Assembly (NCBI GenBank): GCA_002030045.1
Contig: LQBI01000034.1
Coordinates: 41,157-105,156, forward strand
Direction of reading: 5' to 3'
DNA length: 64,000 nucleotides
Source: Candidatus Aegiribacteria sp. MLS_C
GTDB taxonomy: Bacteria > Fermentibacterota > Fermentibacteria > Fermentibacterales > JCC-6
How positions within the stretch are numbered: the first letter of the stretch is position 1; each line of letters opens with the position of its first letter. Shown piece by piece: positions 24,771-55,951 of the stretch. The notes below the pieces were generated by a model. The model had not been told where the DNA came from and searched no databases. It saw nothing but the letters and a program-made list of their open reading frames with translations. The translations under genes were made by a program, and so were the position numbers.

Positions 24771-24830
24771 AGGCTCATTCGAATTGCCTGTGCAAGGTTT
24801 CACCATTGTGAACACGGGGTCGGAACACGG

Positions 24831-25451: not shown

Positions 25452-25480
25452 AAAAACCCCCGAAGAAGGGGGTTTCACTT
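25452..25480 (-). terminator. Orphan intrinsic-terminator-like hairpin
   Basis: AAAAACCCCC-GAAGAA-GGGGGTTT. The U-tract is better on the minus strand (GGGGGTTTTTCTTTC), but no gene reads into it. Confidence 0.4.
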
Positions 25481-25629
25481 TCGTGGCGGGGCATCTTAAC
25501 ACATTATCGAACTATCTTCAATCAATGTAACCCAGTATTCAATGCTATTTCCTTTCTTTGAAGGAAGAGCGATATTACTTTCCAGTATCAGAACTAGGGG
25601 GTGCTGGTTCTGCATATCTGGGGGTTACA

Positions 25630-27519: not shown

Positions 27520-27660
27520 TCGATAAGCTCTGTACACCATTAGAAGAATCATTGATCAGATTGTATTCGAACCCTGTATACTATTGTTGTGTATGTACAT
27601 GTGGTATGAGCATGTCCAGATCACGCTGATGCAAGAATTGTATCGAACCACACATATATC

Positions 27661-27725
27661 TATACAGCAACAATCTAGGGGACGATTGATTCTGAATTGT
27701 AATCATGGCGGAGGGGGTGGGATTC
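27661..27725. repeat. 65-bp direct repeat, tRNA-proximal copy
   Basis: Spans 45 nt downstream of tRNA-Ser plus its last 20 nt. Confidence 0.8.
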
Positions 27726-27796
27726 GAACCCACGGACCCCAAAAAGGGATCAACGGTTTTCGAGACCGTCCCGTTCAACCGCTCCGGCACCCCTCC
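27706..27796 (-). tRNA. tRNA-Ser (anticodon CGA), encoded CCA
   Basis: Reverse complement folds as GGAGGGG/CCCCTCC acceptor, ACGGT-CTCGAAA-ACCGT anticodon arm, long variable arm and GGGTTCGAATCCC T-arm. 91 nt. Confidence 0.9.
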
Positions 27797-27970
27797 GCGG
27801 GGAGGCAAAATATGACGGGAAGTAGAAGTTTCGGCAAGTGTTAGCAGCTTCTGGGCTATTTACATCGGGAACCAAAAAACACATTGATTCACTACACTTT
27901 GGCAGGACTGGTGTTCTATTGTTGTGGTCATATATTTCTGGAAACACAGAAATCCTTAAGGAGAATACAA

Positions 27971-41350: not shown

Positions 41351-43951
41351 TCACTCGATTATGACCAGCTCCAGCGTCTCCTCGAACCCCGCGGTCCGCA
41401 TGCGGCAGAAGTAGACCCCCGGGACCAGGTTGGCGACGGTGATCTGGTGGCTCCCGGCCGGGAGCGGCCCGTCCATAATGCTCTCCACGACCCTCCCGAC
41501 GACGTCGTAGAGGAGGATCTCGATCTCCTGCTGCTGGGGGACCGACACTCCTATGACGGTGCAGTCCTTCCCGGGGTTGTCTCCGGCATGGAAGAGGTCG
41601 AAGCTCTCGGGGGTCTCCTGCCCGGGAGCGCCGCCCATGTGTACCGGCGGGGCGAACTCCGAGGAGTTCCCCAGGCTGTCGGTAGAGGTTGCGGTGATGG
41701 AGTCGCTGAGCTGGAAGGGGACCTCGGTCACGATGGAGATCACCTGCTGTCCCGGCGAGTGACAGGCTCCCGACCCGAGGTAGATCCTTCCCTGATCCCC
41801 CTGTGAGACGAAGAAATCGAGCTCAAGCGGGAAGGCTGAGTTCCCCGGAAGCGAGGGAACGCTGCAGGTTACGTTCAGAGAAGTGAAGCTGACCGCTACA
41901 TCTGAGACCTCAGGGTAGTTCTGAAGCCTGTTTGCTCCCTGGTCGGGGTCGTCGGGATCGTTGGGTGTGGGACCGTCCTCCCCGAGGTCGATCCCTGCGC
42001 CTTCGTTGGCGAAGACCGAGTTCCTGACAATGGCGTTGCCGTTGTCGGATCTCACGCAGACACCGGACCCTCCGTTGAAGGCTATCGTGTTCGAGCAGCT
42101 GCGACTCCGGCCTCCAACCGTGTTGTTCGGTGAGCCGTCGTCCACGAGGATGCCGTGGATGCCGTTGCCCAGCGGTCCGGTGCCCAGGGACGTGGTGCCT
42201 ATCATGTTTCCCTGAAGAACGTTCCCGCTCGAGTTCCTTATCCTGATGCCGTGTCCGGTGTTGCCGGACACGAGATTGCCGAGACCGGAGGAACAGCCTC
42301 CTATAGTGTTGCCGTCGGCATTGTCGTACAGGTAGATGCCTTCGGATTCGTTGGGAATGGAAGCGGTGCCGGTGATGTCGGTGCCGATGTAGTTTCCCTG
42401 GACAAGGTTGCCCGAGCATCCGGAGATGAAGACCCCGTACTTGTTGCCCGATATCAGGTTCCGATCCGAGGGACCGTTGCCGCCTATCTCGTTGTCGCTG
42501 GAGCCTCCTGCGATGTTGACCCCCCATCCGTTGCCCAATGCGACAGTGCCGGTGGCGTCTGTGCCTATGAAGTTGCCCATAATGTTGTTGTCCGAGCAGC
42601 CGCTGATGGTCACGCCGCAGACTCCGTTGCCGGAGATGATGTTCCTGGACGCAACGGTGGTACCTCCGACTATGTTGGCGTCAGCCCCGCCGGACAGGGA
42701 GACCCCCGAGTAGAGGTTCCCCAGTCCGGAGGTGCCGTGGACATCGGCTCCTATAATGTTGCCCTGGACAATGGCTCCGGTCGATCCCTGAATGTCGATG
42801 CCGTGTACTGCATTGCCGGATATGAGGTTGCCCTGGCCGGCTCCGGTTCCGCCCACTGTGGTGTGGTCGGATGTCCCGAATATGCATATGCCGCTCCAGT
42901 GGTTGCCCGCGGCGTGGATCCCCCCGGAGTCTGTGCCGATATAATTACCTGTAATGCTGTTGTGGGTCGAGCCAGACAGGCTTATCCCGTGTCTGCCGTT
43001 GCCGGAGATGGTGTTGCGCATCTCCGCGGAATCGCCTCCTATGGCGGCGTAGTCACCGGTGCAGCTGACGCCGTTCCCGCCGTTGCCCAGGGGAATGGTG
43101 CCGGTGGCATCGAGACCGATGATGTTGGAGACGACGGTGGAGCGCTGGGAGTACTGGAGGAAGACCCCGTCCTGGGAGTTGCCCGACACCAGGTTGCCCC
43201 CTCCGCCGGGGACGCCGATGGTCTGGTGGTCTCCGCAGGACCTTATGCCGCAGCCACCGTTGGGCACCGCCGCGGTCCCGGAAGCATCTGTACCGATGAA
43301 GTTACCGGTAACGACGCAGCTGTCGCAGTTGACAAGCGATATCCCGTCGCCTTCATTGCCCGATATGACGTTCCTCTCTCCCGGAGTCGTCCCTCCGATG
43401 ATCACTCCGTTGGAAGATGTCTGCTGGACCTGTACGCCGCTGTCCTGGTTGGGTACTGCGGTAGATCCGATGATGTCGAGTCCTATGTAGTTCCCGTCTA
43501 TCCTCGTACCGAAGGAGTTCAGAAGGTAGATACCGACCCTGTCGAAGCCGTTCACAGCCAGTCCGCTCACCCTGCTGCTGTCGCTGTCGGTAAAGAAATA
43601 AAGCCCGCCCACGCCGGATCCGGCCAGGGAGCCGTTAAGCTCTATCATCAGCACGGCGGCGGTGCTGTCCGTGGCTCTGGCGGCTCCCGGCTGGGAGTAG
43701 CCATCGATGACGATCCTGCCTGTGAAGGCCGGCAGCCAGGAGGTAGGGCTTATGGTGTGGGGTCCAGTTCCCGGGATGTCGAAGAGGATGCTGTCCGGTC
43801 CGGTGGAACCGTTGGCGTCCAGAATGGCCTGTCTGAGACTGCCGGGACCCGAATTCCAGGTGCCGGTCACGGTGAAGGTGTCGCAGTCCGCGACCCGGAT
43901 CGCGATGAGAAGGAACAGCAGATGTAACCAGGGCCTCGTCGGGAAATGCAT
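41351..43951 (-). CDS. Large secreted right-handed beta-helix (CASH/NosD-like) repeat protein with T9SS-type C-terminal domain
   Basis: Start MHFPTRPWLHLLFLLIAIRVADC after GAGGAG. About 20 copies of ...N.I.GN.IG.D..G... repeats. Tail ...LLYDVVGRVVE...PGVYFCRM... Confidence 0.8.
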   Translation of the reverse strand: MHFPTRPWLHLLFLLIAIRVADCDTFTVTGTWNSGPGSLRQAILDANGSTGPDSILFDIPGTGPHTISPTSWLPAFTGRIVIDGYSQPGAARATDSTAAVLMIELNGSLAGSGVGGLYFFTDSDSSRVSGLAVNGFDRVGIYLLNSFGTRIDGNYIGLDIIGSTAVPNQDSGVQVQQTSSNGVIIGGTTPGERNVISGNEGDGISLVNCDSCVVTGNFIGTDASGTAAVPNGGCGIRSCGDHQTIGVPGGGGNLVSGNSQDGVFLQYSQRSTVVSNIIGLDATGTIPLGNGGNGVSCTGDYAAIGGDSAEMRNTISGNGRHGISLSGSTHNSITGNYIGTDSGGIHAAGNHWSGICIFGTSDHTTVGGTGAGQGNLISGNAVHGIDIQGSTGAIVQGNIIGADVHGTSGLGNLYSGVSLSGGADANIVGGTTVASRNIISGNGVCGVTISGCSDNNIMGNFIGTDATGTVALGNGWGVNIAGGSSDNEIGGNGPSDRNLISGNKYGVFISGCSGNLVQGNYIGTDITGTASIPNESEGIYLYDNADGNTIGGCSSGLGNLVSGNTGHGIRIRNSSGNVLQGNMIGTTSLGTGPLGNGIHGILVDDGSPNNTVGGRSRSCSNTIAFNGGSGVCVRSDNGNAIVRNSVFANEGAGIDLGEDGPTPNDPDDPDQGANRLQNYPEVSDVAVSFTSLNVTCSVPSLPGNSAFPLELDFFVSQGDQGRIYLGSGACHSPGQQVISIVTEVPFQLSDSITATSTDSLGNSSEFAPPVHMGGAPGQETPESFDLFHAGDNPGKDCTVIGVSVPQQQEIEILLYDVVGRVVESIMDGPLPAGSHQITVANLVPGVYFCRMRTAGFEETLELVIIE

Positions 43952-44141
43952 CGGAATCTCCTCATGCTCGGCCCCGCAGGGGGAGTGGATCGTTTTAGCC
44001 TTTGACCCGGCCGTCTTCACCGATATTCTCTCTACAGGGAAGAGCCTTGTAAATACCACTCGGAAACATAAAGGGAAAGCCCCTCCGTCGGGGGGAGGGG
44101 CCAGCACTTGCGGGGATATATACGGGTGTGTCAGGAAATGC

Positions 44142-44309
44142 TCAGGTACCCCTTACCATGCAGCCTCCGGGTCCGGATGCATTCTGGCATGAACCCACCA
44201 TGGGACCCTTGAAACCGGGTCCCTTGCAGAATGTGAGGACCGTTTCCTCCACCATGAGCTTAACGCGTTCAAGAGCGGGTCTGACGTATTTCTTCCTGGT
44301 TTCCTTCAT
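44142..44309 (-). CDS. Candidate RiPP precursor peptide A1 (55 aa)
   Basis: MKETRKKYVRPALERVKLMVEETVLTFCKGPGFKGPMVGSCQNASGPGGCMVRGT, about 65% identical to the peptide at 46291-46458. Last gene of the rSAM cluster. Confidence 0.6.
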   Translation of the reverse strand: MKETRKKYVRPALERVKLMVEETVLTFCKGPGFKGPMVGSCQNASGPGGCMVRGT

Positions 44310-44418
44310 AGCCTTCCACCGGATCCTTTGAGTGAACCTGTACCATAATCCTCTATTTGGTTTCCTCCAACTATTCCCGACCTGATAGGTAAGTTGTTCT
44401 ATCATTCCAACACTGTTA

Positions 44419-45360
44419 TCAGCTGAAAGTTCCTCGGGGCGTTGCACCGTCACTTCTCGGAATAACGGTGTCCCATTTCATGGTGAGCGTACTCCCGGCG
44501 TCCCAGGATGACTGCTCCGGGGCAGGACACTCGCGAAACCCCATGGAGGAGTAGAGCCGCAGGGCCCTGCGGTTGTCCCTCCTGACCGCAAGGCGGAGAT
44601 CACCACTTCCGGAGGAGGCCGCCTGTTCTATGACCAAGGCGGTAAGCATCCTGCCGATACCGGCCCCGCGCAGGGGACGGGCAACCTTCATTCCGAAGAG
44701 CCAGTCACAGCCGGAGAGTGGCGTATCCGGTCCGAACCTGACCAGCTGCGCCGAGCCGACGGTCCTTCCCAGGATGACGGCGTTGAAGGAAACCCAGGAG
44801 ACGTCACCGTTACTAGAAGCCCCCTTTTCCGGGGCATATGTCCGGGTGTACTTCACCAGGGGTCTCACCAGTAGCGAGTAAAGCCTCCGCAGCGGGCGGG
44901 CGAATGTCAGCATGGAAACAGCCATGCCGGCTGCACGGACCCCGTGGTGCCTTGCCCGCCTCAGGACGAAGGACATTCTCAGCGCCAAACCTGTCCCCGG
45001 CGTCATGGACAGGTCGAGTTCCCTCCCGCTCCTCCTGGCGGAGACGACCCTGCCTATTACATCCTCGATACGGATGCTGTATGTGGACCAGGGGCTGGCG
45101 TCGCAGCTCATGGTGATGCTCGAACCGTCCAGGGACCTGAGACGGTGCACGGTGCAACCTCCCCCGGCGGTGCGGTGAAGCAGGACATCGCCCCTTTCAG
45201 GGCTCTTGCCGGTGACGCCCTCGGCCACCAGCAGGTCTCCGTCCCTTATGGTAGGAAACATGCTGGACCCGGAGGCGAAGAACGGGAGCCTTCCTCCCCT
45301 GCTCAGAACCGTATCGGCAAGTTCGGCGAGATCCCGGGAATCCAGGCTCAGATTCTGCAT
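44419..45360 (-). CDS. Fusion protein: S24/S26 (SipW/LexA-like) peptidase domain plus GNAT acetyltransferase domain
   Basis: FFASGSSMFPTIRDGDLL (nucleophile Ser) and CTVHRL in place of the LexA KR motif. C-terminal GAGIGRMLTALVIEQA...ALRLYSSMGF is GNAT motif A. Confidence 0.75.
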   Translation of the reverse strand: MQNLSLDSRDLAELADTVLSRGGRLPFFASGSSMFPTIRDGDLLVAEGVTGKSPERGDVLLHRTAGGGCTVHRLRSLDGSSITMSCDASPWSTYSIRIEDVIGRVVSARRSGRELDLSMTPGTGLALRMSFVLRRARHHGVRAAGMAVSMLTFARPLRRLYSLLVRPLVKYTRTYAPEKGASSNGDVSWVSFNAVILGRTVGSAQLVRFGPDTPLSGCDWLFGMKVARPLRGAGIGRMLTALVIEQAASSGSGDLRLAVRRDNRRALRLYSSMGFRECPAPEQSSWDAGSTLTMKWDTVIPRSDGATPRGTFS

Positions 45361-46238
45361 TCCAGGAAATCCACCACACCTTTGTCGGGCACGAAGCGGA
45401 GTTCTCCGAAGGCAACCCGTTCCTCTGTCTCTTCGCAGAACCGGAGGCTGAACTCCATTCCCTCCCTGCTCCAGACAGGCAGGAAGCTCCTCCGGAGGAG
45501 CATGGACACCGCACGGGCGCCACTCACCGGAGCAAGCACGTTCTTCCGTCCATGGAAGAGGAAGCTGACTGCGGTCAGGGGGACCCCCTCCGCGGACACG
45601 TCGGACATGTCGCCGTGCCAGGGAGTGCCGTACATGGCGATGGCCCCCTCCCTCTCCCTCAGTATTATTCTATCGTCGTTGAGGATGCGGGCCCGGTCCC
45701 TCCAGAGAGAAGCCATTGTGGACTTGCCGTGGGTGGAGTTGCCGGGGAAGAGCAGTCCCCTGCCCCCGCTCTCGAGGCCGCAGGCGTGCACCATGAGCCC
45801 CAGGCCGCGGGACAGCAGGAGGACCATGAGTACCTCTGAGAGAGGGAACTCCAGCGGGTCGCGCTCCCCTTCGAGGAGGGAATGACCGCCCCGTCCTGCT
45901 ATGGTCCACACGTCTCCGGTGGTGAGTCCTTCATCGAAGGAGGCGAGCCTGTACGGGGTCCCTCCCATTACAGGGGACCTAAGCAGCATGTGGATGCCGC
46001 CCCCCCCCTCCCAGAGGCTCCATACAGTGTTCGAGTCGAAAACCTTGCGGCTGGAGGGAGGAAGCAGCTCCTCCAGCTCACGAGGCGAATCGTGCACATT
46101 GAGCGCCAGGTCCGCCTCCGCTGCCGATCGGTGGAAATCCCTGTATCGTCCCTCGTTCAGGGCTCCCATGTACCGGGAAGGGCCTGTAATGGAGAAAACA
46201 AGGCCGCCAATGGAAAGGTAGACCGTACTCTCGCTCAT
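45348..46238 (-). CDS. HPr-kinase-related (HprK-like) kinase
   Basis: P-loop FPGNSTHGKSTMA and ...MYGTPWHGD resemble the HPrK C-terminal domain family. Confidence 0.75.
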   Translation of the reverse strand: MSESTVYLSIGGLVFSITGPSRYMGALNEGRYRDFHRSAAEADLALNVHDSPRELEELLPPSSRKVFDSNTVWSLWEGGGGIHMLLRSPVMGGTPYRLASFDEGLTTGDVWTIAGRGGHSLLEGERDPLEFPLSEVLMVLLLSRGLGLMVHACGLESGGRGLLFPGNSTHGKSTMASLWRDRARILNDDRIILREREGAIAMYGTPWHGDMSDVSAEGVPLTAVSFLFHGRKNVLAPVSGARAVSMLLRRSFLPVWSREGMEFSLRFCEETEERVAFGELRFVPDKGVVDFLECRI

Positions 46239-46290
46239 GCTGCCACCGGTTTTCGAAGGATCCCGACGGGAGAGTGTTCCGGGAACCGGC

Positions 46291-46458
46291 TCAGGTTCCT
46301 CTTACCTGGCAGGGCTGAGGGGAGCCGGAAGTCCGGCATGCAGAAACACCGGGCCCCTTGAAGCCGGGCCCCTTGCAGAAAGTGAGTACGATCTCCTCCA
46401 CCATCAGCCGCACCCGGCTGATGCAGGGTCTTTCATACTTCTTCCTGGATTTTTCCAC
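46291..46458 (-). CDS. Candidate RiPP precursor peptide A2 (55 aa, GTG start; absent from the ORF track)
   Basis: Manual translation gives (M)EKSRKKYERPCISRVRLMVEEIVLTFCKGPGFKGPGVSACRTSGSPQPCQVRGT. GGAG lies 7 nt upstream of the GTG. Same length as A1. Confidence 0.6.
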   Translation of the reverse strand: MEKSRKKYERPCISRVRLMVEEIVLTFCKGPGFKGPGVSACRTSGSPQPCQVRGT

Positions 46459-46493
46459 TGGTGATCTCCGTATCCGTTATGCGTAAGTATTAT

Positions 46494-47591
46494 TCACTTT
46501 ACCTTATTATATGGATGACGGTCGCCGAGGCCAAGTGCCTCGGCCCGGAGCAGGGCGGTGCGGCAGAGGTACTCCACCCTGGCCTCCGGGTCCCCGTGCT
46601 CCAGGTACCCCCATGCGGGGCACTGGCCGCACAGTGACCTGAGCCTGCAGGTCCTGCAGGGCGGATCACTGGCCCACTGCCTGGAGAGCACCTCCGGCAC
46701 GAAGGACCTCCATCCCTCCCTGAAGGAACCCTCCGGAATGCTGTAGGTCCTGTCCCTGGACATCATGCAGACTCTGAGCATGCCGAAGGCGTCCACATGG
46801 AAGGTGTTCATTCCGGCCCCGCACTGGTATATGCTTCCGGAACCGTCCTCCGAGGCTGCGAAGTCCTCCGCCAGCTCGCGGCATTCCTGCATCCTCTCCT
46901 CGTCCCTCGCGTCCAGCTCCACGGTCTCCTCCGGAGTCAGTCTGTAGCGCAGGGGGGAGTGATCGCCGTCAAGACCGCTGTTTATTGCCGTGTCGAACCT
47001 GAACTGTATGCCGTAGTCCTTCGCCAGGGTCTTCATGGAGCCTATCTCATGCGAGTTCAGGGTCATGACCATGGTCTTGAGGCCGACCCTGACGCCCCTG
47101 TCAAGCAGCCTCTCCAGTCCCGCGAGAGCCATTCCAAGCGAGCCGGGAACGCCGGTGACCCGCCTGGAGGTGGCCTCGGTGGAGCCGTAGATGGAGATCT
47201 CCACCAGATACGGTGGCATGGATGCCAGGAAATCCGCGGTATCATCGGTTATGAGGGTGCCGTTGGTGAAGAGCATGGGCAGGATGCCCCTCGATTTCAC
47301 GTGCCCGTATACTTCCCTGAAATCGGGTCTCAGAAGGGGCTCCCCGCCGGTGAGCAGCAGCCACAGGCAGCCCTCGTCGGCGATCTGGTCGATGACGTCC
47401 ATGAGGGCTTCCGTTCCCAGTCCGGGTTCCGGTTCCCTGGATCCCGAAATATAGCAGTGGACGCACCGGAGGTTGCACCTGGAAGTCAGCTCCATGGTCC
47501 CGGAGATGGGGATGCGGTCCCTCAGCGCTCCCCTGTAGAGCCTGTTCCTGAAGTGAAGGTAGCCGGAATCCGGAAGGCTGGGACAGTCCAA
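46494..47591 (-). CDS. Radical SAM enzyme with C-terminal SPASM domain (peptide maturase type)
   Basis: CNLRCVHCY (CxxxCxxC), and SPASM cysteines ...YQCGAG...RVCM... and CRTCRLRSLCGQCPAWGY. Confidence 0.9.
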   Translation of the reverse strand: MDCPSLPDSGYLHFRNRLYRGALRDRIPISGTMELTSRCNLRCVHCYISGSREPEPGLGTEALMDVIDQIADEGCLWLLLTGGEPLLRPDFREVYGHVKSRGILPMLFTNGTLITDDTADFLASMPPYLVEISIYGSTEATSRRVTGVPGSLGMALAGLERLLDRGVRVGLKTMVMTLNSHEIGSMKTLAKDYGIQFRFDTAINSGLDGDHSPLRYRLTPEETVELDARDEERMQECRELAEDFAASEDGSGSIYQCGAGMNTFHVDAFGMLRVCMMSRDRTYSIPEGSFREGWRSFVPEVLSRQWASDPPCRTCRLRSLCGQCPAWGYLEHGDPEARVEYLCRTALLRAEALGLGDRHPYNKVK

Positions 47592-47592
47592 G

Positions 47593-47904
47593 TCAGTTCC
47601 CCGGGGACCCTTCTGCCTCGAGGACGCGGTGGATTGCGCCCGCCGCCAGCAGCTCCTCCGCGTACTCCTCCAGGTCGGCCAGGACTGTGTCGATATCCAC
47701 CTGGAACTCCTCCACGAAGGTCACGGCTATCTCGTAGATGCTTCGGACGCCGTCGATGGAATTCCAGAACCTCGCGCCCGTCTCGTTGAGGACGAAGATG
47801 CTGTCGGTCTCGTCGGCGTTCCTGCTTATGGGGACGAGTATCGTTTCCCCGGCGATCTCCCTGAATACCATTCCAGGGTCCCGCCTGAAGATGATCTCCT
47901 GCAT
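47593..47904 (-). CDS. PqqD-family RiPP recognition element protein
   Basis: 103 aa. ...FREIAGETILVP...FVLNETGARFWNSIDGVRSIYEI... matches the PqqD fold pattern. Stop lies 1 nt from the rSAM start. Confidence 0.8.
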   Translation of the reverse strand: MQEIIFRRDPGMVFREIAGETILVPISRNADETDSIFVLNETGARFWNSIDGVRSIYEIAVTFVEEFQVDIDTVLADLEEYAEELLAAGAIHRVLEAEGSPGN

Positions 47905-48141
47905 TTGATGCCTTCCTGTTGGTCGGTCCCGTGCTACAACAATACAGGCCCCGGCCGGTTCCTGTCAAAAAGCAACGGGCAGACGGGCCTTCCAGGCAAG
48001 CGCAGCGTCAGGGAGCATGGCAAACCATCGCGCAGCCAAATGGGAACATGGACGCGGAGCGAAGCTCTTAGAATAATTCGGGCGATAGCCGATTCGGCGG
48101 CCGGGCTTTTCGGGCCGTCATCATCATGCGAGGGAGGACGT

Positions 48142-49446
48142 ATGAGGATTCTCGCCGTTCTGCTGCTGGCGGGCTTTGCCGCCGGGACGGTCCTTGCCAG
48201 TAACATCGACTACCTCACCAACAGGAGCGTGAGCTACTTCAGGAACTTCGCGCGCAACCCGGCGACGGATGGTGCGGACCTGGTCACATACAACCCTGCC
48301 GGACTGGTTTTCCTCGAGGAGGGTTTCCACGTCAGCTTCGGCAACCAGTTCCTTCTCAAGGACTATACCATAGAGGCGGTGCCCTTCTGGGACACCACCA
48401 CTACCGAGACATACGAGTCCACTGAACCCACGCTCTTCCTGCCCGACCTGTACACCGTGTACAGGACCGCTGACCTGGCAGTCTTCGGCTCCTTCACGGC
48501 ACCCGCCGGAGGGGGCTCCCTGGACTACAAGGAAGGCGTCTACGCCATGTCGCTTATCGAGACCGGGCTGCAGCAGGCGCTGAACATGAACCCCTACTAC
48601 TTCGCAGTAATGGACGGAGGGAACCTGAAGGCCTCCTCACAGTACCTTGCAGGGACCCTGGGCGGTTCATACGCCTTCAGCGACATCTTCTCCATGGGCC
48701 TGGCCGGCCGGTACGTCGCCGGAAAGAGGACATACGAGGGCCAGGCGGACTTCAACATATTCGGCCCGGATTCCACCGGTCAGATAATACCCGTGGGGAC
48801 CTCAAGCAGGATACTGGACGTGGAAAAATCGGCCAGCGGCTTTGGCGGCGTTCTAAGCCTGGACGTTATGCCCACTCCGGACCTGAACGTTGCCCTCAGG
48901 TACGAGACCGCCACCTCCCTGGAGTGGGAGACTACGGTCAAGGAGAACAGCTGGGCGCCCTACTGGCTGCCGGATTCCAGCTTCACCGACGGCTACCAGC
49001 AGCGGAGGGACCTTCCCGCCATAGTCGCCGGCGGTGTGTCCTACAGGTTCTCACCCGCCTTCAAGCTGAGCACTACCTTCAATTACTATCTCGTGGAGGA
49101 TGCCGACCAGGGGGATGACGACGGGCTGGACGACGCCTACGGGAACGGTCTGGATATCGGCCTCGGAATGGACTACCAGGTCTCCCCGAGGATCCTTCTG
49201 GGTCTCGGTTATCTCCACAGCGACCTGGGAGGCAGCGATTCCACCTACACCGACTTCGAGTACAACCTGAGCTACGACGCCATAGGCACAGGGCTCAGGT
49301 ACGCGGTGAACGACAGGTTCGCTCTGAACTTCGGCGCCGGACACAACATCTACCAGGAAGGCAGCGGAGTAGGCCCATTCGAGGACTGCACCTACAGCAA
49401 GTCCGTCTGGTACTTCGGGCTGGGAGCCGAACTCAGCTTCAAGTAG
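48142..49446 (+). CDS. FadL/TodX-family outer-membrane hydrophobic-compound channel
   Basis: Start MRILAVLLLAGFAAGTVLA after GGGAGG. ...DGADLVTYNPAGLVFL... motif; C-terminal ...GLGAELSFK. Confidence 0.8.
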   Translation: MRILAVLLLAGFAAGTVLASNIDYLTNRSVSYFRNFARNPATDGADLVTYNPAGLVFLEEGFHVSFGNQFLLKDYTIEAVPFWDTTTTETYESTEPTLFLPDLYTVYRTADLAVFGSFTAPAGGGSLDYKEGVYAMSLIETGLQQALNMNPYYFAVMDGGNLKASSQYLAGTLGGSYAFSDIFSMGLAGRYVAGKRTYEGQADFNIFGPDSTGQIIPVGTSSRILDVEKSASGFGGVLSLDVMPTPDLNVALRYETATSLEWETTVKENSWAPYWLPDSSFTDGYQQRRDLPAIVAGGVSYRFSPAFKLSTTFNYYLVEDADQGDDDGLDDAYGNGLDIGLGMDYQVSPRILLGLGYLHSDLGGSDSTYTDFEYNLSYDAIGTGLRYAVNDRFALNFGAGHNIYQEGSGVGPFEDCTYSKSVWYFGLGAELSFK

Positions 49447-49580
49447 AGCTGCATGAGTGCGAAGGTGAGGGGGCCGCGTTCAGCGGCCCCCTTCCTGTTA
49501 CATTCTGTTACGGACCCATCACACCCGGTTCCTGTTCCACCCTCAGGATATTCCCGAAGAACGATCCTTGAAGGGAGGAA

Positions 49581-50465
49581 ATGATGAAGACTCTGACAGC
49601 GGTTGCAACGCTGATCCTGCTGGCCGCGGCAGGCTGCGTGCAGGAGCCCGGGACGGCGATGTCGGACACCGAGAACATCCAGGAGCTTCTGCGGAACAGC
49701 GATCTCGCGTCCATGACGCCCCTGGAGGGACAGGGTGAGAGCGGAGGAGGCAGGGACGCCGGGTTCCCGGAGCACTGGTGGAGGTCGCTGACCAGCGAGG
49801 AGCCCATGGATTTCCTGCTGGAGAACGACCCTGCATCGGGCATCTGCACGGTGACGGTCTCAAGGACACTCCAGGCTTCCTTCAATATCGACGTCACCCA
49901 TGACGGGGTATTGAACCCAGGTATCAAGCCCATATCAGACCTGAGGACCAGGCGCGTGATACTCGAGAGGACCGGCGAGGATACGGATCCTCACGGAGGC
50001 TGGGAGCTGACGCACCTGACCCCGGCCGTCTACTCGCTGGACTCGGGGCTGGAGCAGCAGGTTTTCGTACAGTCCATGAGGATCTACGCCGGGGACGAAC
50101 TGATCTGGGAATGCGACTCACCCGGGACATTCTACGCCGTGGAGGACGGGCTGCCCGTGCTGGAACCGGGCACCCTTGTGAGGGTCGAGGCCGAGTTCCT
50201 GCACACATCGCCCCTCTACCAGCCTCCGTTCTACGCCTACGTCCACGGACCCTGTCCCGTATGGCCCCGCCACTGGATGAACGACGAGGGTTTGTGGGGA
50301 GACAGGGTGGCCGGCGACGGCGTACTGTCGTACGAGTGGTACGTGGAGGGAACATCCGACCACTGGTTCGTGGCCGTGGACGTCATAGACGCCGACACAA
50401 TGCTGGACCAGGAGGAGGACGACTACGACTCCGGCGCCTGGGGCATCCCGGCGCTCAAGAACTGA
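49581..50465 (+). CDS. Lipoprotein, hypothetical
   Basis: MMKTLTAVATLILLAAAGC lipobox. Confidence 0.6.
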   Translation: MMKTLTAVATLILLAAAGCVQEPGTAMSDTENIQELLRNSDLASMTPLEGQGESGGGRDAGFPEHWWRSLTSEEPMDFLLENDPASGICTVTVSRTLQASFNIDVTHDGVLNPGIKPISDLRTRRVILERTGEDTDPHGGWELTHLTPAVYSLDSGLEQQVFVQSMRIYAGDELIWECDSPGTFYAVEDGLPVLEPGTLVRVEAEFLHTSPLYQPPFYAYVHGPCPVWPRHWMNDEGLWGDRVAGDGVLSYEWYVEGTSDHWFVAVDVIDADTMLDQEEDDYDSGAWGIPALKN

Positions 50466-50483
50466 AGAAAGGAAGTGATCAGT

Positions 50484-51026
50484 ATGTCTGCAGGAGGAAA
50501 AGTGATCGGTCTGGCAGCGATGGTGCTGCTGCTCGGCGCGGGAACGCTGCTGGCCCAGGGACCGGGAGGTTACGGGGGTATGTCGGGTGGGCCGATGATG
50601 GGTCCCGGAAGCGGCGGAGGACCGCAGGGCGGCCTCGGCATGGAGCACCTGGAGAGGTTCCGCATGATGTTCAGGGGGCTGGACCTCACGGAGGAGCAGG
50701 CCGAGGAGATAAGGTCCATAGTCGGTACCGCAAGGGAGGAAGCCAGGGAACTGATAGAGGCGGCCGGACCAGTGGAGGACGGGGAGAGCTTCATGGATAT
50801 CTTCACCTCTCCCGCGCTGACCGTCAGGGACCTGGAGGAAAGCATTGACCAGATGGACGAGGTCCGCGACCAGGTCAGGGGCATTGTGCTTCAGGCCATC
50901 GTGGACGTCCATGACGTGCTTACGGCCGAACAGCTCCAGAGGCTTGCGGAGATGGCGGATGAGTACGGCCACGGAGCCGGCGGATGGAGCGGTGCCGGAC
51001 CTGGACCGGGCGGAGGTCGCTGGTAG
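50484..51026 (+). CDS. Spy/CpxP-family (LTxxQ) periplasmic chaperone-like protein
   Basis: Signal peptide, Gly-rich linker, and LTEEQ and LTAEQ motifs. Confidence 0.65.
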   Translation: MSAGGKVIGLAAMVLLLGAGTLLAQGPGGYGGMSGGPMMGPGSGGGPQGGLGMEHLERFRMMFRGLDLTEEQAEEIRSIVGTAREEARELIEAAGPVEDGESFMDIFTSPALTVRDLEESIDQMDEVRDQVRGIVLQAIVDVHDVLTAEQLQRLAEMADEYGHGAGGWSGAGPGPGGGRW

Positions 51027-51051
51027 AGCAGGTCTGGAAACACACTCCCCG

Positions 51052-51090
51052 GGGGGAGGGGCGCCACCCCGGCCCCTCCCCCTTCCCTTT
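51052..51090 (+). terminator. Intrinsic terminator-like hairpin
   Basis: GGGGGAGGGGC-9 nt-GCCCCTCCCCC followed by TTCCCTTT. Confidence 0.55.
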
Positions 51091-51326
51091 GCTCCCGCCG
51101 GCCGCGGTATCCATGTTTCCCTCGAGGACGAGGCACCATGTCCTGCGACCACTATCATCCTTTCCAGAGGCATCCATTGACGTTGAATGGGAAGCCGGCC
51201 GCCGCGGAGCAGCGCTTGCGGCAGCCTTCCCTTCGTGCAATACTGCAGGCAGGAAGAAGGGTTTTGATACCGCGGTTTTCCTCCGGGAACGGAGCTGCAT
51301 GCGGGGACCTCCGGGAGGTCGCGGTG
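51091..51326 (+). promoter_or_regulatory. Long structured 5' leader of fhs (unclassified cis-regulatory RNA candidate)
   Basis: 10-bp long-range pairing of 51102-51111 with 51266-51275, an internal GGGAAG.../...CTTCCC helix, and a GACCTCC/GGAGGTC hairpin covering the SD. Confidence 0.3.
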
Positions 51327-53030
51327 ATGAATGTAACGGACATGGAGGACGAAGTGAGTAGTTTCCCTACCAATATCGAGATCGCGAAATCCGTCGTTCC
51401 ACTACCGATGGCGGAGGTGGCGGAGAAGCTGGGGCTCGGGGTCGAGGACCTTGACCTCTACGGAAGCGACAAGGCCAAGGTGCACCTGGAAGCTATCGAG
51501 AAAGGGAACGGGGACCGGGGCAGACTCGTCCTGGTCTCGGCAATGACGCCGACCCCGGCCGGCGAGGGCAAGACAACCACCACCATAGGACTGACACAGG
51601 GGCTGGGCAGGCTGGGCAAGTCCGTATCCTGCGCCATAAGGGAGCCGTCACTCGGACCCATCTTCGGTATCAAGGGAGGCGCGGCGGGAGGAGGCTACTC
51701 ACAGGTTATTCCGATGGAAGACATCAACCTGCACTTCACCGGCGACATGCACGCGATAACCTGTGCCAACAACCTCCTTTCGGCGGCGCTGGACAACCAT
51801 CTGCACCAGGACAACCCCCTGAAGCTGGATCCGAGGACGGTGAGCTTCAGGCGGGTCATGGACATGAACGACCGCTCCCTCAGGGACATCATCATAGGAC
51901 TGGGCGGAAGGACCCAGGGCGTGCCCCGCGAGGAAGGGTTCGATATAACTGCGGCAAGCGAGATAATGGCCATACTCGCACTGTCCACTGACATGAACGA
52001 CCTCAAGGAGAGGCTGAAGAGGATATTCATCGGCCTCACCTACGACAGGGAGCAGGTGGTGGCCGAGGAAATCGGTGTGACCGGCGCAATGGCCATGCTG
52101 CTGAAGGACGCGATCAAGCCGAACCTGGTCCAGACACTGGAGGGAAACCCCGCCTTCGTACACTGCGGACCCTTCGCCAACATTGCCCACGGGTGCAATT
52201 CCATACTGGCCACCAGGATGGCCATCGCCTTCTCCGACTGGGCCATCACCGAGGCCGGTTTCGGGTTCGACCTGGGAGCCGAAAAGTTCTTCGACATAAA
52301 GTGCCGGTACGGGAAGCTCTGCCCCAGCCTGGTTGTTCTCGTGGCGACCTGCAGGGCCCTGAAACTGCATGGAGGAATGAAGAAGAGCCAGCTGACGGAA
52401 GCCAGCACAGAAGCTGTGACGAGGGGGCTGCCCAACATGGAGAAGCACCTGGAGAACATCCGCAAGTTCGGTCTTCCGGCTGTGGTTTGCGTCAACAGGT
52501 TCGCCGGCGATACCGACACCGAGCTGGAAGCGGTCCTGGACAGGTGCCGGGAACTGGGAGTGCCCGCCGCGGTGGGCGACGGCTTCGCCGAGGGCGGCAG
52601 GGGGATGGAGGAGCTGGCATCCCTGGTGGTGGAGAACGCCAGTGACCGCTGCGGGTCGTTCAAACCCCTCTACGACTGGAACTGGAGCGTCGAGGACAAG
52701 ATCGCGAAGGTGGCAAAGGAGATATACGGTGCCGAGTACATAGACTACACACCTCTGGCAAGGAAGGACCTGAGCACCATAACAAGGCTGGGCTACGACA
52801 AACTGCCTGTGTGCATCGCCAAGACGCAGAAGTCGCTGTCGGACAATCCGGCCCTTCTGGGTAGGCCCAAGGATTTCGTCGTGACGGTCAGGGAGATAGA
52901 GATAGCGGCAGGTGCCGGGTTCCTCGTTCCCATCACGGGAAACATCATGCGGATGCCCGGACTTCCCAGGGAACCGGCGGCTAATCACATGGACGTGGAT
53001 GAATCCGGCAACGTGACCGGCCTTTTCTAG
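51327..53030 (+). CDS. fhs: Formate-tetrahydrofolate ligase
   Basis: ...TNIEIAKS..., PTPAGEGKTTTTIGL and ...LVQTLEGNPAFVHCGPFANIAHG... signatures. Start moved to the ATG at 51327. Confidence 0.95.
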   Translation: MNVTDMEDEVSSFPTNIEIAKSVVPLPMAEVAEKLGLGVEDLDLYGSDKAKVHLEAIEKGNGDRGRLVLVSAMTPTPAGEGKTTTTIGLTQGLGRLGKSVSCAIREPSLGPIFGIKGGAAGGGYSQVIPMEDINLHFTGDMHAITCANNLLSAALDNHLHQDNPLKLDPRTVSFRRVMDMNDRSLRDIIIGLGGRTQGVPREEGFDITAASEIMAILALSTDMNDLKERLKRIFIGLTYDREQVVAEEIGVTGAMAMLLKDAIKPNLVQTLEGNPAFVHCGPFANIAHGCNSILATRMAIAFSDWAITEAGFGFDLGAEKFFDIKCRYGKLCPSLVVLVATCRALKLHGGMKKSQLTEASTEAVTRGLPNMEKHLENIRKFGLPAVVCVNRFAGDTDTELEAVLDRCRELGVPAAVGDGFAEGGRGMEELASLVVENASDRCGSFKPLYDWNWSVEDKIAKVAKEIYGAEYIDYTPLARKDLSTITRLGYDKLPVCIAKTQKSLSDNPALLGRPKDFVVTVREIEIAAGAGFLVPITGNIMRMPGLPREPAANHMDVDESGNVTGLF

Positions 53031-53046
53031 GCGGGACCGGAGGTCC

Positions 53047-53880
53047 ATGCCGGGCAGGAAACCCCTGTCATCGTCCGGGCCGCTCCTTTACGGACTATCC
53101 GTCTTCGTTCGAAGGATGGTCCGAAGGCTGCGATGGTCCTTCGGGAATGAACGCTGGGCGCTGTGTGGAAGCATCGACCCCCTTCCCGAACTGGTGGTCG
53201 CCCACAGGTCGATCCTGATCAGGAAACTGGAGGGTACCGACCTGCGGCTTCAGAGTAACAAGACCGCGAGCCTGGGAATAGCGGCACCCCTTGTTGACGG
53301 CACCATACTGGAGCCCGGAGAGACCTTCTCGTTCTGGCGGCTGGTAGGCAGGCCCACGGCGGGGAGGGGGTTCCCTCCCGGGCTCCAGCTGTCCTTCGGC
53401 CGAATGGTGGCCATGACCGGGGGCGGGCTGTGCCAGATGTCGAACCTTCTCCACTGGATGGTGCTCCATACTCCCCTTGAGGTCACCGAACGCCACAGGC
53501 ACAGCTTCGACCCGTTCCCTGACTACCGCAGGACGGTACCCTTCGGCACCGGCGCCACGGTTTTCTACAACTACCTGGACCTGTGCTTCAGGAACGGAAC
53601 GGAACAGAGGTTCCAGGTCAGGGTAGGCCTGGATGATGAGTATCTCACGGGGGAGATAAGGTGCGAAGCACCGCTTCCGGAAGTCTGCCGCATAGAGGAG
53701 AGGGACCACCGTTTCGTCAGGAGGAAGGGAGTCGTCTACAGGGAGAACAGGCTGTGGAGGGTCAGAATGGACCCGAAGACCTCCCGTACAATAGACGAGA
53801 CGCTGATAATGGAAAACTGCGTTGCGGTCAGCTATGACGCAGATGCCGTTCCGGGACTGAAGGTGGAGGAGGAGGACTGA
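53047..53880 (+). CDS. VanW-family protein
   Basis: GETFSFWRLVGRPTAGRGF...GGGLCQMSNLLH is the VanW-domain pattern. Confidence 0.75.
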   Translation: MPGRKPLSSSGPLLYGLSVFVRRMVRRLRWSFGNERWALCGSIDPLPELVVAHRSILIRKLEGTDLRLQSNKTASLGIAAPLVDGTILEPGETFSFWRLVGRPTAGRGFPPGLQLSFGRMVAMTGGGLCQMSNLLHWMVLHTPLEVTERHRHSFDPFPDYRRTVPFGTGATVFYNYLDLCFRNGTEQRFQVRVGLDDEYLTGEIRCEAPLPEVCRIEERDHRFVRRKGVVYRENRLWRVRMDPKTSRTIDETLIMENCVAVSYDADAVPGLKVEEED

Positions 53881-53899: not shown

Positions 53900-55951
53900 T
53901 CATCTGGCTATTACCATCCTCGTGGCCCCGGTCCCCGAGGGTCCCGCCAGCACAACCGAATAGACACCGGAGGGCAGAGGCGCTCCGGAACCGTCCATGC
54001 CGTCGAAGGATAGGCTTCCCGAACCCTGCGGAAGCATGCCGGAGTGGAGTTCCCGCACAGCCCTGCCGGCCATGTCGAACACGGTCACGGAGAACTCCCC
54101 TGATGCCGGCAGGTCGTAGGCTATGGAGCAGCCGTACCTTGCGGGATTCGGTGCCGGGGAATACAGGATCGGCGCCGCGGGAGCCTGATCATCGCCTTCC
54201 TCGATCCCGGTCTGTCCGGCAATGAAGATAACCGCCGGGTCGCCCAGAAGGTTGTTCTCCTGTGTGACCCAGTCTATCAGCGGCACGGTCACCAGTGACT
54301 GGATCTCGTCCTTGGCGTTGCACTGGATTACGCCTATCTGCGTCACGCCGAACCCGAAAAGCTGCTCCGCGAACTTGATCTCCAGCCATTCGGAGGGCCC
54401 CCTGGCCGGAGGGGTACCCCAGCCGTAGCTGGAATTGAACATCACCGCGATGGCCCCGCCGAAGGGCGAGAGCATGAGCCGCTCGGCTATGCATGCGCCT
54501 TCAGTCAGCTCTCCCGCCATGCAGGCTATGGAGTGGAACACGGTTAGCATGTCGATGTTGTGCATATCCGCGTAGTTGGTGGTGGCCACCATTTCCGTTG
54601 GAGCGTAGTCGTACCAGTAGATGCCGCCCCAGTTCCCGTGGCCATGGACCGAACCGAAGGAGCACCCCTCGTTGATGATGTCTATCTGGTTGTTTGGATG
54701 GCCGTACTCGTCCTCGTAGAGCTTTTCCACGGTCCAGTAGGCGGGAATGTACTCGGCTATGTCCTCGCACACGAAGCTGCCCCAGTAGTCAGGGGGCCAG
54801 AGACCGGCGCCCATGAGCAGGGCCGTGGTCCTCCAGTCGCCCTCCGGGGTCGTGGTCTCGTAGGAGATGGTCTTTTCCACCATGTTCTCCAGGAAGTTCT
54901 CGCTGTCGGAGCAGAACCTGCCCACGTAGAGGTCGCTATAGTAGTTGATGCCGTCCCCGGCCTCGCCGTACTTGTGGTCGCCGTCACCGTCCCAGGTTCC
55001 GTCCAGGTCGATGTAGTAATGGTCGGCGACGTTGTTCAGCACCGTCTGGCCGCTGTTGATGGCGTAGCTGGAGATGCGGGTGGTCTCGCCGTAGTCGCCC
55101 ACAATGAGGGCGTATACCAGGGAATGGTTCTGGAACTGGTCCTTGAGGTAGTTCCTTATTTTCTCCGGAGTATCATACCCCGTGTAGTTTTCGGTTATGT
55201 ACTGCACCGTCACGTACTCGGCCTCGCCAGTGTGGAGGTTCCTGTGGGCAACCAGGGGCTCCAGCACGGAAGCCATGCCGCTGTCCCCTATCGCCACCCA
55301 GACAGGGTCTCCGTCGGTATCCGAACGGGTCGCCGGAGACCAGGCGGAAAGCGCCTCGGGATTCTCTACCATCTGCTCCACAGCCGGCCTGAAAGCGGCG
55401 AGCTGGCGTCCGGTGAGGGAGACGGTCTCCGCCGAGGCGTCATTCGAACAGCGGACGGTGACGTCGGCTGCGGTTATCAGCCGAAGGTCGCCCGAAAGGG
55501 GGTCGTAGACGAAGGGGACCAGTACGAACCCGCCCAGCCTGAAGCCCGACCTGCCGCCGGACCTCCAGGCGCTCACCGGCCTGTCGGGGAATCCCTCCGG
55601 ACTAGAGTACACCGGGGAGGGCGAAGCGGGCTCGAAGGGACGGCTCAGGATGCTGTAGGTCACCGGCGCTATCCTGTAGCTGCCGGGCAGGGCCTCTGAC
55701 CCCAGGACTTCCACCGAGACGTCCTCGATCGAGGTACCCTGAGGGATTACGAAGGTATAAGCCACGCCCTGAAGCGAAGGTTCTCCCTCCCGGAACGGGA
55801 CCACTCCCTCGGGGATGGAGACCACGTCCCAGCCCATCCAGGAGGAGAGTTCCACCTGGTCCGCCTCGATGCTGAAACGGAAGCTGATGTCATCAGCCCC
55901 GGCAGCCGTCGAGAGAGCCAGAAGCGTGAACAGTATCATGTATCTATGCAT
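53900..55951 (-). CDS. Peptidase C25 (gingipain-like) with T9SS-type C-terminal domain
   Basis: Signal peptide, GSVHGHGNWGG (His), FHSIACMAGE (Cys), tail ...VTVFDMAGRAVREL...PSGVYSVV... Confidence 0.8.
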   Translation of the reverse strand: MHRYMILFTLLALSTAAGADDISFRFSIEADQVELSSWMGWDVVSIPEGVVPFREGEPSLQGVAYTFVIPQGTSIEDVSVEVLGSEALPGSYRIAPVTYSILSRPFEPASPSPVYSSPEGFPDRPVSAWRSGGRSGFRLGGFVLVPFVYDPLSGDLRLITAADVTVRCSNDASAETVSLTGRQLAAFRPAVEQMVENPEALSAWSPATRSDTDGDPVWVAIGDSGMASVLEPLVAHRNLHTGEAEYVTVQYITENYTGYDTPEKIRNYLKDQFQNHSLVYALIVGDYGETTRISSYAINSGQTVLNNVADHYYIDLDGTWDGDGDHKYGEAGDGINYYSDLYVGRFCSDSENFLENMVEKTISYETTTPEGDWRTTALLMGAGLWPPDYWGSFVCEDIAEYIPAYWTVEKLYEDEYGHPNNQIDIINEGCSFGSVHGHGNWGGIYWYDYAPTEMVATTNYADMHNIDMLTVFHSIACMAGELTEGACIAERLMLSPFGGAIAVMFNSSYGWGTPPARGPSEWLEIKFAEQLFGFGVTQIGVIQCNAKDEIQSLVTVPLIDWVTQENNLLGDPAVIFIAGQTGIEEGDDQAPAAPILYSPAPNPARYGCSIAYDLPASGEFSVTVFDMAGRAVRELHSGMLPQGSGSLSFDGMDGSGAPLPSGVYSVVLAGPSGTGATRMVIAR

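Follow-up and report, generated by a model that had tools for sequence, protein, structure and literature searches.

The linear polyphosphorylated peptide (LPP) pathway of Bacillota, encoded by LppA/B/K/S/D/N (Popov et al., Nat Commun 2026, PMC13381572), is the closest characterised system to the locus analysed in this study, a six-gene candidate operon for a peptide made by ribosomes and modified post-translationally (RiPP) in Candidatus Aegiribacteria sp. MLS_C. The locus occupies positions 44142-47904 of a 64,000-nucleotide stretch of contig LQBI01000034.1 (assembly GCA_002030045.1), hereafter called the window. The conserved core of the LPP pathway consists of an archaeal-type peptidase resembling signal peptidase I (SpI), LppS, the discrete RiPP recognition element (RRE) LppB, the HprK-like kinase LppK, an NTP-transferase and an MsbA-type exporter. 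LppK polyphosphorylates Ser3 of the core peptide, and unphosphorylated precursor is cleaved poorly; LppS is a leader peptidase that depends on LppB, with S29, H68 and D93 as catalytic residues. The leader (consensus YxxPxVLxHQxIxFETxxS) is cut after F-E-T, 16 residues past the Tyr of YxxP, and the product is linear. The authors of that paper state that no RiPP pathway had previously been found to contain an SpI-like peptidase and that LPPs occur in Bacillota only; a radical SAM domain appears neither in the text of the paper nor in its supplementary co-occurrence tables (PMC13381572).

Other described systems share further parts with the window locus. HprK-superfamily kinases phosphorylate the C-terminal Ser of paeninodin and pseudomycoidin, two lasso peptides (PMC12639078). 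Two cassettes defined in silico only, GeoRSP (TIGR04302/04303/04355) and SynChlorMet (TIGR04248-04251), combine a PqqD protein, a radical SAM/SPASM enzyme and an HprK-related P-loop protein, and sactipeptide/ranthipeptide maturases such as SkfB, AlbA, CteB and PapB are radical SAM/SPASM enzymes acting on Cys-rich cores. Within the searchable literature, which leaves subscription-only papers outside its scope, we found no description of a radical SAM enzyme combined with an HprK-type kinase and an SpI-type peptidase. Searches of that literature for GeoRSP, SynChlorMet, ScmC, HPr kinase or peptidase C25 together with radical SAM returned nothing relevant, and the reviews examined mention neither a kinase nor S24.

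Gene Content and Distribution of the Cassette

All six genes lie on the minus strand in the order PqqD, radical SAM enzyme, precursor A1, kinase, peptidase-GNAT fusion and precursor A2, at the positions given in an earlier note made from the sequence alone. The PqqD gene (47593..47904, 103 aa; PF05402) is followed, after the single base that the note had reported, by the TTG start of the radical SAM/SPASM gene (46494..47591, 365 aa; PF04055). Precursor A1 (46291..46458, 55 aa) has a GTG start with GGAG upstream; the gene for a P-loop phosphotransferase of HprK/PEPCK fold (45348..46238, 296 aa; Pfam ScmC family) is overlapped by 13 nt by the fusion gene (44419..45360), and precursor A2 (44142..44309, 55 aa) opens with ATG. 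On the same strand, the six genes are bracketed by a sigma-70-like promoter match about 35 nt upstream of the PqqD start (TTGACA-18-TATTGT, 47939..47968) and a terminator-like hairpin about 40 nt past the A2 stop (44078..44102; 9-bp stem with 7 GC pairs and a T-rich tail); both are consensus matches, and the promoter consensus may not be that of the host. GC content is uniform, at ∼0.61. The six genes constitute one intact, real operon, well beyond a chance arrangement. A second promoter-like site (TTGGCC-17-TATAAT, 46506..46534, minus strand), likewise a consensus match, lies within the 3′ end of the radical SAM gene just upstream of A1; being near-consensus, it could add transcription of A1.

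A survey of the gene neighbourhoods of homologues, which the earlier note had proposed, demonstrated that the cassette recurs widely. One genome per species was scanned, giving 80 radical SAM loci, and hidden Markov models from the first loci were searched against all six-frame open reading frames (ORFs). A kinase-like gene adjoins the radical SAM gene in 46 loci, most of which also carry PqqD and a homologous small ORF, and the order PqqD, radical SAM, precursor, kinase, peptidase recurs in these 46 loci from more than 10 phyla, including Fermentibacteria, Acidobacteriota/Aminicenantes, Desulfobacterota, Omnitrophota, Nitrospirota, Planctomycetota, Chloroflexota, Verrucomicrobiota and Myxococcota. 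The 31 more distant radical SAM loci that served as a control set do not have the cassette. Specifically, one Acidobacteriota genome and two Fermentibacteria-like contigs present the same succession of PqqD, radical SAM enzyme, small ORF, ScmC-family protein and acetyltransferase-containing protein.

A variant was seen in Nitrospirota (L040-L043, L047 and L048), with three radical SAM/SPASM genes, a longer peptidase (∼270-390 aa, measured over the ORF) and, downstream, a conserved sigma-factor-like gene. Its precursors are longer, with Cys-Ser for Cys-Lys, 3-5 Cys and ends of the type ...GPRAS or ...GARAS, and all of its proteins stay below the SynChlorMet and GeoRSP cut-offs.

Proposed Pathway

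We consider it probable that the operon makes a small cross-linked, phosphorylated and leader-trimmed RiPP through four proteins acting on A1 and A2. Radical SAM chemistry, phosphosite, exact cleavage site, acetylation and order of steps are as we infer them from the sequences. First, the PqqD protein would bind the leader through its invariant Y-x-x-P-x-(L/I), as the RREs of lasso peptide and LPP pathways do, and present it to the enzymes. Second, the radical SAM/SPASM enzyme, with three Fe-S clusters, would cross-link the core of about 32 residues, most likely through thioethers from C28, C41 and C50. Third, the HprK/PEPCK-fold enzyme would move a phosphate from ATP to a hydroxyl group, most likely that of Thr55 (Ser in most relatives). 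Finally, the peptidase domain (Ser33/His72) would remove the leader after Glu22-Ile/Thr23, 16 residues past the Tyr and in the LppS register, and the fused RimI-like GNAT may acetylate the newly exposed N-terminus of Val24, or possibly Lys29. RRE-dependent leader cleavage by an SpI-like peptidase and Ser phosphorylation by an HprK-like kinase have been shown elsewhere, for the LPP and paeninodin parts to which these proteins are homologous. In the window, the genes are present and the catalytic motifs are intact, and both the cassette and the precursor pattern are conserved throughout the family. The core reading of the earlier note, a RiPP operon of an RRE, a radical SAM/SPASM enzyme, an HPr-kinase-like kinase, a peptidase-GNAT fusion and two precursors, agreed with every in silico test that was run.

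Comparison With Known Systems

By analogy, the locus appears to join a recognition, phosphorylation and processing module of LPP/paeninodin type to a sacti/ranthipeptide-like radical SAM/SPASM maturase. With the LPP pathway it shares a discrete PqqD-type RRE, an HprK-like kinase and a soluble SpI-homologous peptidase with Ser/His/Asp and a Ser-His spacing of 39 residues, and its precursors have a YxxP leader with Glu and a small residue at positions 15-16 after the Tyr. Furthermore, LppS fragments rebuilt from mutagenesis primers (...PARGTSMYPFI... and ...GNLVAHRF...) align with ...FASGSSMFPTI... and ...GCTVHRLR... of the window peptidase; the LPP comparison is based on published descriptions together with these primer-derived fragments. 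In contrast, LPP pathways lack a radical SAM enzyme, a GNAT and any conserved Cys pattern, their C-termini are variable and they phosphorylate core Ser3, whereas their NTP-transferase and MsbA-like exporter are absent from the window operon and not conserved in the 46 loci. Judged from its genes, the window locus carries an LPP core set of SpI-like peptidase, RRE, HprK-like kinase and YxxP leader while falling outside the full LPP definition. The earlier note knew of no characterised peptidase partner, which still holds for a radical SAM-containing system but needs amending for the RRE/kinase/peptidase module, as characterised in LPP.

The likeness to the paeninodin/pseudomycoidin lasso peptides (PadeK, ThcoK, PsmK) includes an HprK-fold kinase beside a PqqD RRE, a YxxPxL-type leader and a C-terminal Ser as phosphosite. 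However, the window operon contains neither a cyclase (the Asn-synthetase-like C protein) nor a B2 cysteine/transglutaminase-like protease, and neither is conserved across the 46 loci; the radical SAM enzyme stands in place of the lasso cyclase, and the locus does not belong to the lasso peptides.

It was also considered whether the locus is a GeoRSP trio or a SynChlorMet cassette already catalogued in silico, a possibility that the earlier note had raised for GeoRSP. The GeoRSP models do exist, the architecture is the same in kind (PqqD, radical SAM/SPASM, HprK-related protein), and there are weak matches to TIGR04302, TIGR04303, TIGR04355, ScmC, ScmE and ScmF, with PF27840 (ScmC) covering the kinase. 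Nevertheless, all equivalog cut-offs were missed by a factor of 4-8. For GeoRSP, the scores were 72.9 vs 400 bits for the radical SAM enzyme, 19.6 vs 100 for PqqD and 26 vs 200 for HprK_rel_B; for SynChlorMet they were 21.1 vs 125 for ScmC, 88.8 vs 400 for ScmE and 71.2 vs 400 for ScmF, with no ScmD match and one radical SAM gene only. The relatives, including the three-radical-SAM Nitrospira variant, also scored far below the cut-offs. In addition, a defined precursor family and an SpI-like peptidase that is conserved belong to the window family. To our knowledge, the definitions of GeoRSP and SynChlorMet include neither a signal-peptidase-like gene nor a precursor of the window type. Membership in either cassette was thus rejected on the NCBIfam scores and is, in our estimation, extremely improbable; the locus lies outside GeoRSP, SynChlorMet, the lasso peptides and the LPP family as these are defined.

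PqqD Protein and Radical SAM Enzyme

The PqqD protein matches PF05402 at 51.2 bits against a gathering score of 23.4 (E 1.6e-13) and retains the VLNETG motif; its best NCBIfam match is the lasso PqqD chaperone, below cut-off. Its gene stands directly upstream of the radical SAM gene in most of the 46 cassette loci. Score, adjacency to a maturase and the motif in the precursor all agree with a role as a putative RRE.

The radical SAM enzyme (PF04055, 69.6 bits, E 4.7e-19) has the CxxxCxxC motif as CNLRCVHC (C39/C43/C46) and a full 7-Cys SPASM set, C257-x12-G270-x4-C275, C312-x2-C315-x5-C321-x2-C324 and C343. These cysteines, which the earlier note had described, are complete in the window and invariant in an alignment of 16 radical SAM homologues, which places the enzyme by sequence in the radical SAM/SPASM subfamily. 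Its best profile matches in the PDB are SkfB (E 9e-23, the alignment spanning residues 24-280), PqqE and CteB. Full-length similarity was found only to peptide maturases, namely MftC, AlbA and PapB in NCBIfam and CteB in the PDB, while haem and molybdopterin enzymes align just over the N-terminal half. No NCBIfam family cut-off was reached, and a fit to a non-peptide family, which the earlier note had named as a reason to abandon its reading, was therefore not found. More than 2000 relatives of the enzyme occur in the database; the nearest come from Candidatus Fermentibacteria (57-68% identity), followed by Acidobacteriota and Deltaproteobacteria (∼47-50%).

The sacti/ranthipeptide maturases resemble the window enzyme in the full 7-Cys motif, the Cys-rich core and the alignment over the full length to CteB, PapB and AlbA, with SkfB as best PDB match; they differ in that the window RRE is a separate protein and not an N-terminal domain, and the scores are far below the family cut-offs. 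Because the enzyme occurs together with an RRE and the core contains three invariant Cys, thioether cross-linking is its most likely chemistry, although other radical SAM reactions, for example on the C-terminal residue or on a Lys, may apply instead.

Two further cysteines outside the radical SAM and SPASM motifs, Cys3 (M-E/D-C-P) and Cys75 (EGCLWLL), are invariant in 16/16 homologues.

Precursor Peptides

Both precursors end in VRGT, as had been noted earlier. In A1 the predicted leader comprises aa 1-23 (46390-46458) and the predicted core aa 24-55, VLTFCKGPGFKGPGVSACRTSGSPQPCQVRGT (46294-46389); in A2 the predicted leader, again aa 1-23 (44241-44309), precedes the predicted core VLTFCKGPGFKGPMVGSCQNASGPGGCMVRGT (44145-44240). 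A2 was read from an internal ATG of a 103-aa GTG ORF, in which GGTGGAAGG precedes the A2 start. The two peptides share 62% identity, with a synonymous divergence (dS) of 1.16 and a ratio of nonsynonymous to synonymous divergence (dN/dS) of 0.28; they appear to be old paralogues, and the low dN/dS indicates purifying selection on both. L086, a near relative whose kinase is 88% identical, retains both copies, and the A2 orthologue is called as a gene there.

A profile built on 25 locus precursors retrieved 908 database clusters, all of them annotated as hypothetical and none with a Pfam family. We compared the 120 top hits and 39 locus precursors, 159 in total, after anchoring them on the Tyr of the leader motif. 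The YxxP motif was present in 159/159, and the distance from Tyr to the first Cys was exactly 20 residues in 157/159. Positions 14-15 after the Tyr are mostly Glu-Glu, with Glu or Asp at position 14 and with Glu at position 15 in 118/120 top hits and 27/39 locus precursors, and position 16 is mostly V/A/T/S/I. A Lys directly follows Cys1 in 117/120 top hits and 29/39 locus precursors. Three Cys were found in 119/120 top hits, spaced by 12-14 between Cys1 and Cys2 in 117 and by 4 between Cys2 and Cys3 in 101, a single hit falling outside 4-6. Ser or Thr ends the sequence in 120/120 top hits and 36/39 locus precursors; the profile itself holds the C-terminal Gly-Ser, so the former figure is somewhat circular, and the locus set, found mainly via the leader, gives the fairer estimate. 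The C-terminal pair is mostly Gly-Ser, and Gly-Thr in the clade of the window. Y8, P11, C28, C41 and C50 are invariant in the precursor alignment, and the leader consensus of the family is YxKPxLxxVxLxxEEx. Homologous small ORFs adjoin the homologous radical SAM genes in nearly all 46 cassette loci (39 tabulated and four more), and this conservation across more than 10 phyla removes the earlier note's concern that the small ORFs might not be conserved there.

The leader of A1 contains an extra Cys at codon 12 (46423-46425; R-P-C-I-S), right after the invariant Pro, which is absent from A2 and most relatives and replaced by Gly in the L086 orthologue. A lipobox reading of L-A-x-G-C-K was also tried and rejected, on account of Glu-Glu 6-7 residues upstream, the lack of a hydrophobic h-region and, in the window peptides, Phe at -1.

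Peptidase-GNAT Fusion

The fusion protein combines a peptidase domain (aa 1-118; 45007..45360; Peptidase_S24 match aa 29-106), two long linker helices (aa 121-168; 44857-45000) and a RimI-like GNAT domain (aa 170-297; 44470..44853; Acetyltransf_1 match aa 184-275), all read from the minus strand. The peptidase domain scores 25.7 bits against the 23.3 cut-off of PF00717 and matches TIGR02228 partially; the stand-alone peptidase orthologue of locus L009 passes TIGR02228 (55.5 vs 51.85) and also matches SipW. Across 42 fusion proteins and 25 mixed sequences, S33, M34, H72, R73 and D87 do not vary, and the spacing from Ser33 to His72 equals that from S29 to H68 in LppS. There is no N-terminal membrane anchor, and an N-terminal helix stands in its place. 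Because the His-Arg box marks the archaeal/ER type, the domain is classed, from its motifs, as a putative cytosolic homologue of archaeal/ER-type signal peptidase I (S26B, SipW/Sec11-like), atypical in the absence of the anchor.

Structure models in this study were made from alignments of database proteins. The AlphaFold2 model of the fusion, with a predicted local distance difference test (pLDDT) score of 91.5, comprises a helix (aa 8-20), a beta-barrel (aa 24-110), the linker helices (aa 121-168) and the GNAT (aa 170-297). The GNAT matches PF00583 at 39.9 bits, above the Pfam cut-off, its best NCBIfam match is rimI (E 2.4e-8), and the acetyl-CoA loop R231-G-A-G234-I-G236 is present. Top Foldseek matches of the model were ribosomal-protein-alanine N-acetyltransferases (4j3g, 29% identity; 5isv) and NatA/NatE, in a fold search that the GNAT domain dominated and in which the peptidase domain had no separate ranking. 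Pfam match, loop and modelled fold thus point to a probable GNAT acetyltransferase.

The conserved fifth gene of the cassette aligns only with the N-terminal third of the window fusion and encodes a peptidase that stands alone, its matched region being ∼110-190 aa. Fusion to a GNAT occurs only in the Fermentibacteria clade, in some Acidobacteriota and at one Omnitrophota locus; it still recurs among the best 150 representatives at 50% identity, most of them being ∼290-400 aa long and matching across both domains. Of the peptidase-GNAT partner put forward in the earlier note, the fusion is present and its peptidase is conserved across cassettes, while the GNAT is a clade-specific addition.

From the Glu and small or beta-branched residue at positions 15-16 after the Tyr, as in LPP, we predict cleavage at ...VEEI\|VLTFCKG... 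in A1 and ...VEET\|VLTFCKG... in A2, which would give cores of 32 residues. The pair reads exactly Glu-Thr in A2 and in its relatives from Fermentibacteria.

HprK/PEPCK-Fold Kinase

The kinase has the Walker A motif GNSTHGKST, and H151, G166-x4-G171-K172-T174 and D188-D189-R190 are invariant in its alignments. These residues are the counterparts of the catalytic His, the P-loop Lys and the Asp-Asp of HprK/P, the spacing being nearly equal. Precomputed Pfam annotation places the window kinase in PF27840 (ScmC), as it does nearly all of the 120 best of 559 relatives; a local Pfam scan gave no match, so that PF27840 was seen in the precomputed annotation only. The NCBIfam families HprK_rel_B, HprK_rel_A and ScmC match partially and below cut-off. 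A diverse kinase profile (named A2, as is the second precursor) matches HPr kinase structures in the PDB at E 3e-4, and the AlphaFold2 model (pLDDT 92.3) has PEP carboxykinase (E 1e-6) and HprK/P (E 9e-4) as top Foldseek matches. The expected HprK/PEPCK features, a Walker A motif, an upstream His, a downstream Asp-Asp and the modelled fold, are all present. Based on the invariant motifs, the HPr kinase profile match and the fold, the protein is a credible phosphotransferase of the PEPCK/HprK-like P-loop type, for which we infer a peptide substrate.

Phosphosite, Alternative Readings and Contrary Evidence

The C-terminal Thr phosphorylation proposed in the earlier note gains from the near invariance of a C-terminal Ser/Thr throughout the family, and it falls short of proof. 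The C-terminal hydroxyl residue is the only one conserved throughout the precursor family, and for this reason Thr55 is favoured as the predicted phosphosite over the rival Thr26. In that rival reading, which we regard as rather unlikely, the machinery is the same, but the kinase would target a hydroxyl near the core N-terminus (Thr26, third of VLT) and thereby gate leader cleavage. [quoted passage not shown] Across the family, however, Ser/Thr at core +3 occurs in just 15/39 locus precursors and 24/120 top hits, vs 36/39 and 120/120 for C-terminal Ser/Thr.

Several observations weigh against the proposed pathway of cross-linking, C-terminal phosphorylation and leader removal. LppK, the sole characterised kinase of an SpI-containing pathway, targets core Ser3 and not the C-terminus, and the predicted window core has Thr at +3; moreover, L021, L033, L038 and L039 keep the kinase without a C-terminal Ser/Thr. 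The matches of the kinase to named families are all partial and under curated cut-offs, and a deeper but less diverse kinase profile (A5) found no sequence match in the PDB. At the predicted cleavage site, position -3 is Glu here vs Phe in LPP. The cross-link acceptor residues are not conserved, and the radical SAM reaction is therefore a guess; in addition, MftC, the top NCBIfam match of the enzyme, acts on a C-terminus. Finally, the flanks of the 46 loci hold no conserved exporter or immunity gene; an ABC-like gene was seen in 5/46 and none in the window.

The MftC match and the missing exporter also bear on a different role for the peptide, as the precursor of a small cofactor-like molecule derived from the C-terminal Gly-Ser/Thr in the manner of mycofactocin or PQQ, with the radical SAM enzyme working on the C-terminus and the peptidase freeing the piece. 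MftC matches the enzyme over its full length at 117 bits; it works with a discrete PqqD-type protein, MftB, and its site of action is the conserved C-terminus of a peptide. The most conserved positions of the core lie at its ends (CK and G-S/T), and no exporter is conserved. Yet the MftC score is less than half of the 265-bit cut-off, the window locus has neither an MftA-like GVY terminus nor Mft partner genes, and no redox partner genes are conserved. Three Cys of fixed spacing with variable loops resemble a scaffold and are unlike a cofactor precursor. That a single operon holds two diverged paralogous cores suggests diversification of the product, and the peptidase has as its homologue a proven leader peptidase, which cuts at the boundary of leader and core. 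We consider such a cofactor precursor improbable.

Neighboring Genes and Peptidase_C25

Clustering of the ORFs flanking the 46 loci revealed one further recurrent family, Peptidase_C25, comprising large proteins of 680-1750 aa that often also carry Propeptide_C25 and DUF11-type repeats. A C25 gene stands directly beside the cassette on the same strand in 15/46 loci (L013, L018, L020, L021, L023-L025, L027-L031, L033, L035 and L038) vs 0/31 control loci. In the window, the gene for a secreted Peptidase_C25 protein of the gingipain/PorU family with a FlgD_ig C-terminal domain (53900..55951, minus strand; PF01364, 163.7 bits) lies 6 kb upstream of PqqD; the corresponding gene of L003 is at about the same distance, and both are on the strand of the cassette. 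The recurrent adjacency suggests a role at the cell envelope or cell surface, a link that is loose for the window itself.

Accordingly, the modified peptide could work with or on the giant cell-surface C25 protein, as inhibitor, maturation factor or substrate, and not as a free antibiotic. The 15 loci with this adjacency come from at least six phyla, and a cell-envelope (capsule) setting is also that of LPP and paeninodin clusters. Two thirds of the loci, however, have no C25 gene within the fetched flanks, and in the window five genes, four of them on the opposite strand, separate it from the cassette. We hold this role to be unlikely; it concerns function and not biosynthesis, and is compatible with the proposed pathway.

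Taken together, the cassette is a widespread, well-defined genome-mining target with specific predictions. Tentatively, and with somewhat more doubt than confidence, we propose that it stands for an extensive RiPP class so far undescribed, to which at least 900 precursor clusters from more than 10 mostly uncultured anaerobic phyla would belong and in which a lasso/LPP-type module is combined with a radical SAM/SPASM cross-linker. Its product would be cross-linked through three Cys, carry a C-terminal phospho-Ser/Thr and, in this clade, be N-acetylated by a 'cut-and-cap' fusion, with a role tied to the giant C25 cell-surface proteases rather than to bacteriocin export. If this is true, the logic of an SpI-type peptidase with an HprK-type kinase, demonstrated only in 2026, would extend beyond Bacillota to a much larger family, and the SpI/HprK module could be combined with radical SAM chemistry. 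It would also mean a new peptide scaffold with a phosphate, cross-links and possibly an N-acetyl cap from lineages nearly without characterised natural products, for which the recognition motif, the cleavage site, the phosphosite and the three donor cysteines are testable predictions. A cell-surface function, as hinted at by the C25 adjacency, would be unusual for a RiPP.

A Lys-specific cut of Cys-Lys by the neighboring C25 protease was tried as an explanation and rejected, as Chloroflexota loci with an adjacent C25 have Cys-His or Cys-Phe.

Right downstream of the hairpin, positions 41351-44107 (minus strand) encode a 918-aa parallel beta-helix (NosD-like) protein with a C-terminal sorting domain of the type IX secretion system (T9SS), and L086 has a similar gene a few kb from its cassette; such T9SS domains fit a host of the FCB (Fibrobacteres-Chlorobi-Bacteroidetes) group, Fermentibacteria-like. 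On the other side, a divergent block on the plus strand (47629-53880) comprises genes for a FadL/outer-membrane beta-barrel protein, a 294-aa protein of no family, an LTXXQ (Spy/CpxP-like) protein, formate-tetrahydrofolate ligase and a VanW-like protein. This block is syntenic with L003 and, for the part within the fetched flank, with L086, but not with L005. Further away, a low-GC stretch at 22000-27800 (0.45-0.49 vs ∼0.60 elsewhere) holds a Fic/DOC-family gene (23539-24738, minus strand) and several ORFs of no family, with a tRNA gene (27709-27796, minus strand) at its end; the stretch resembles an island that inserted at the tRNA.

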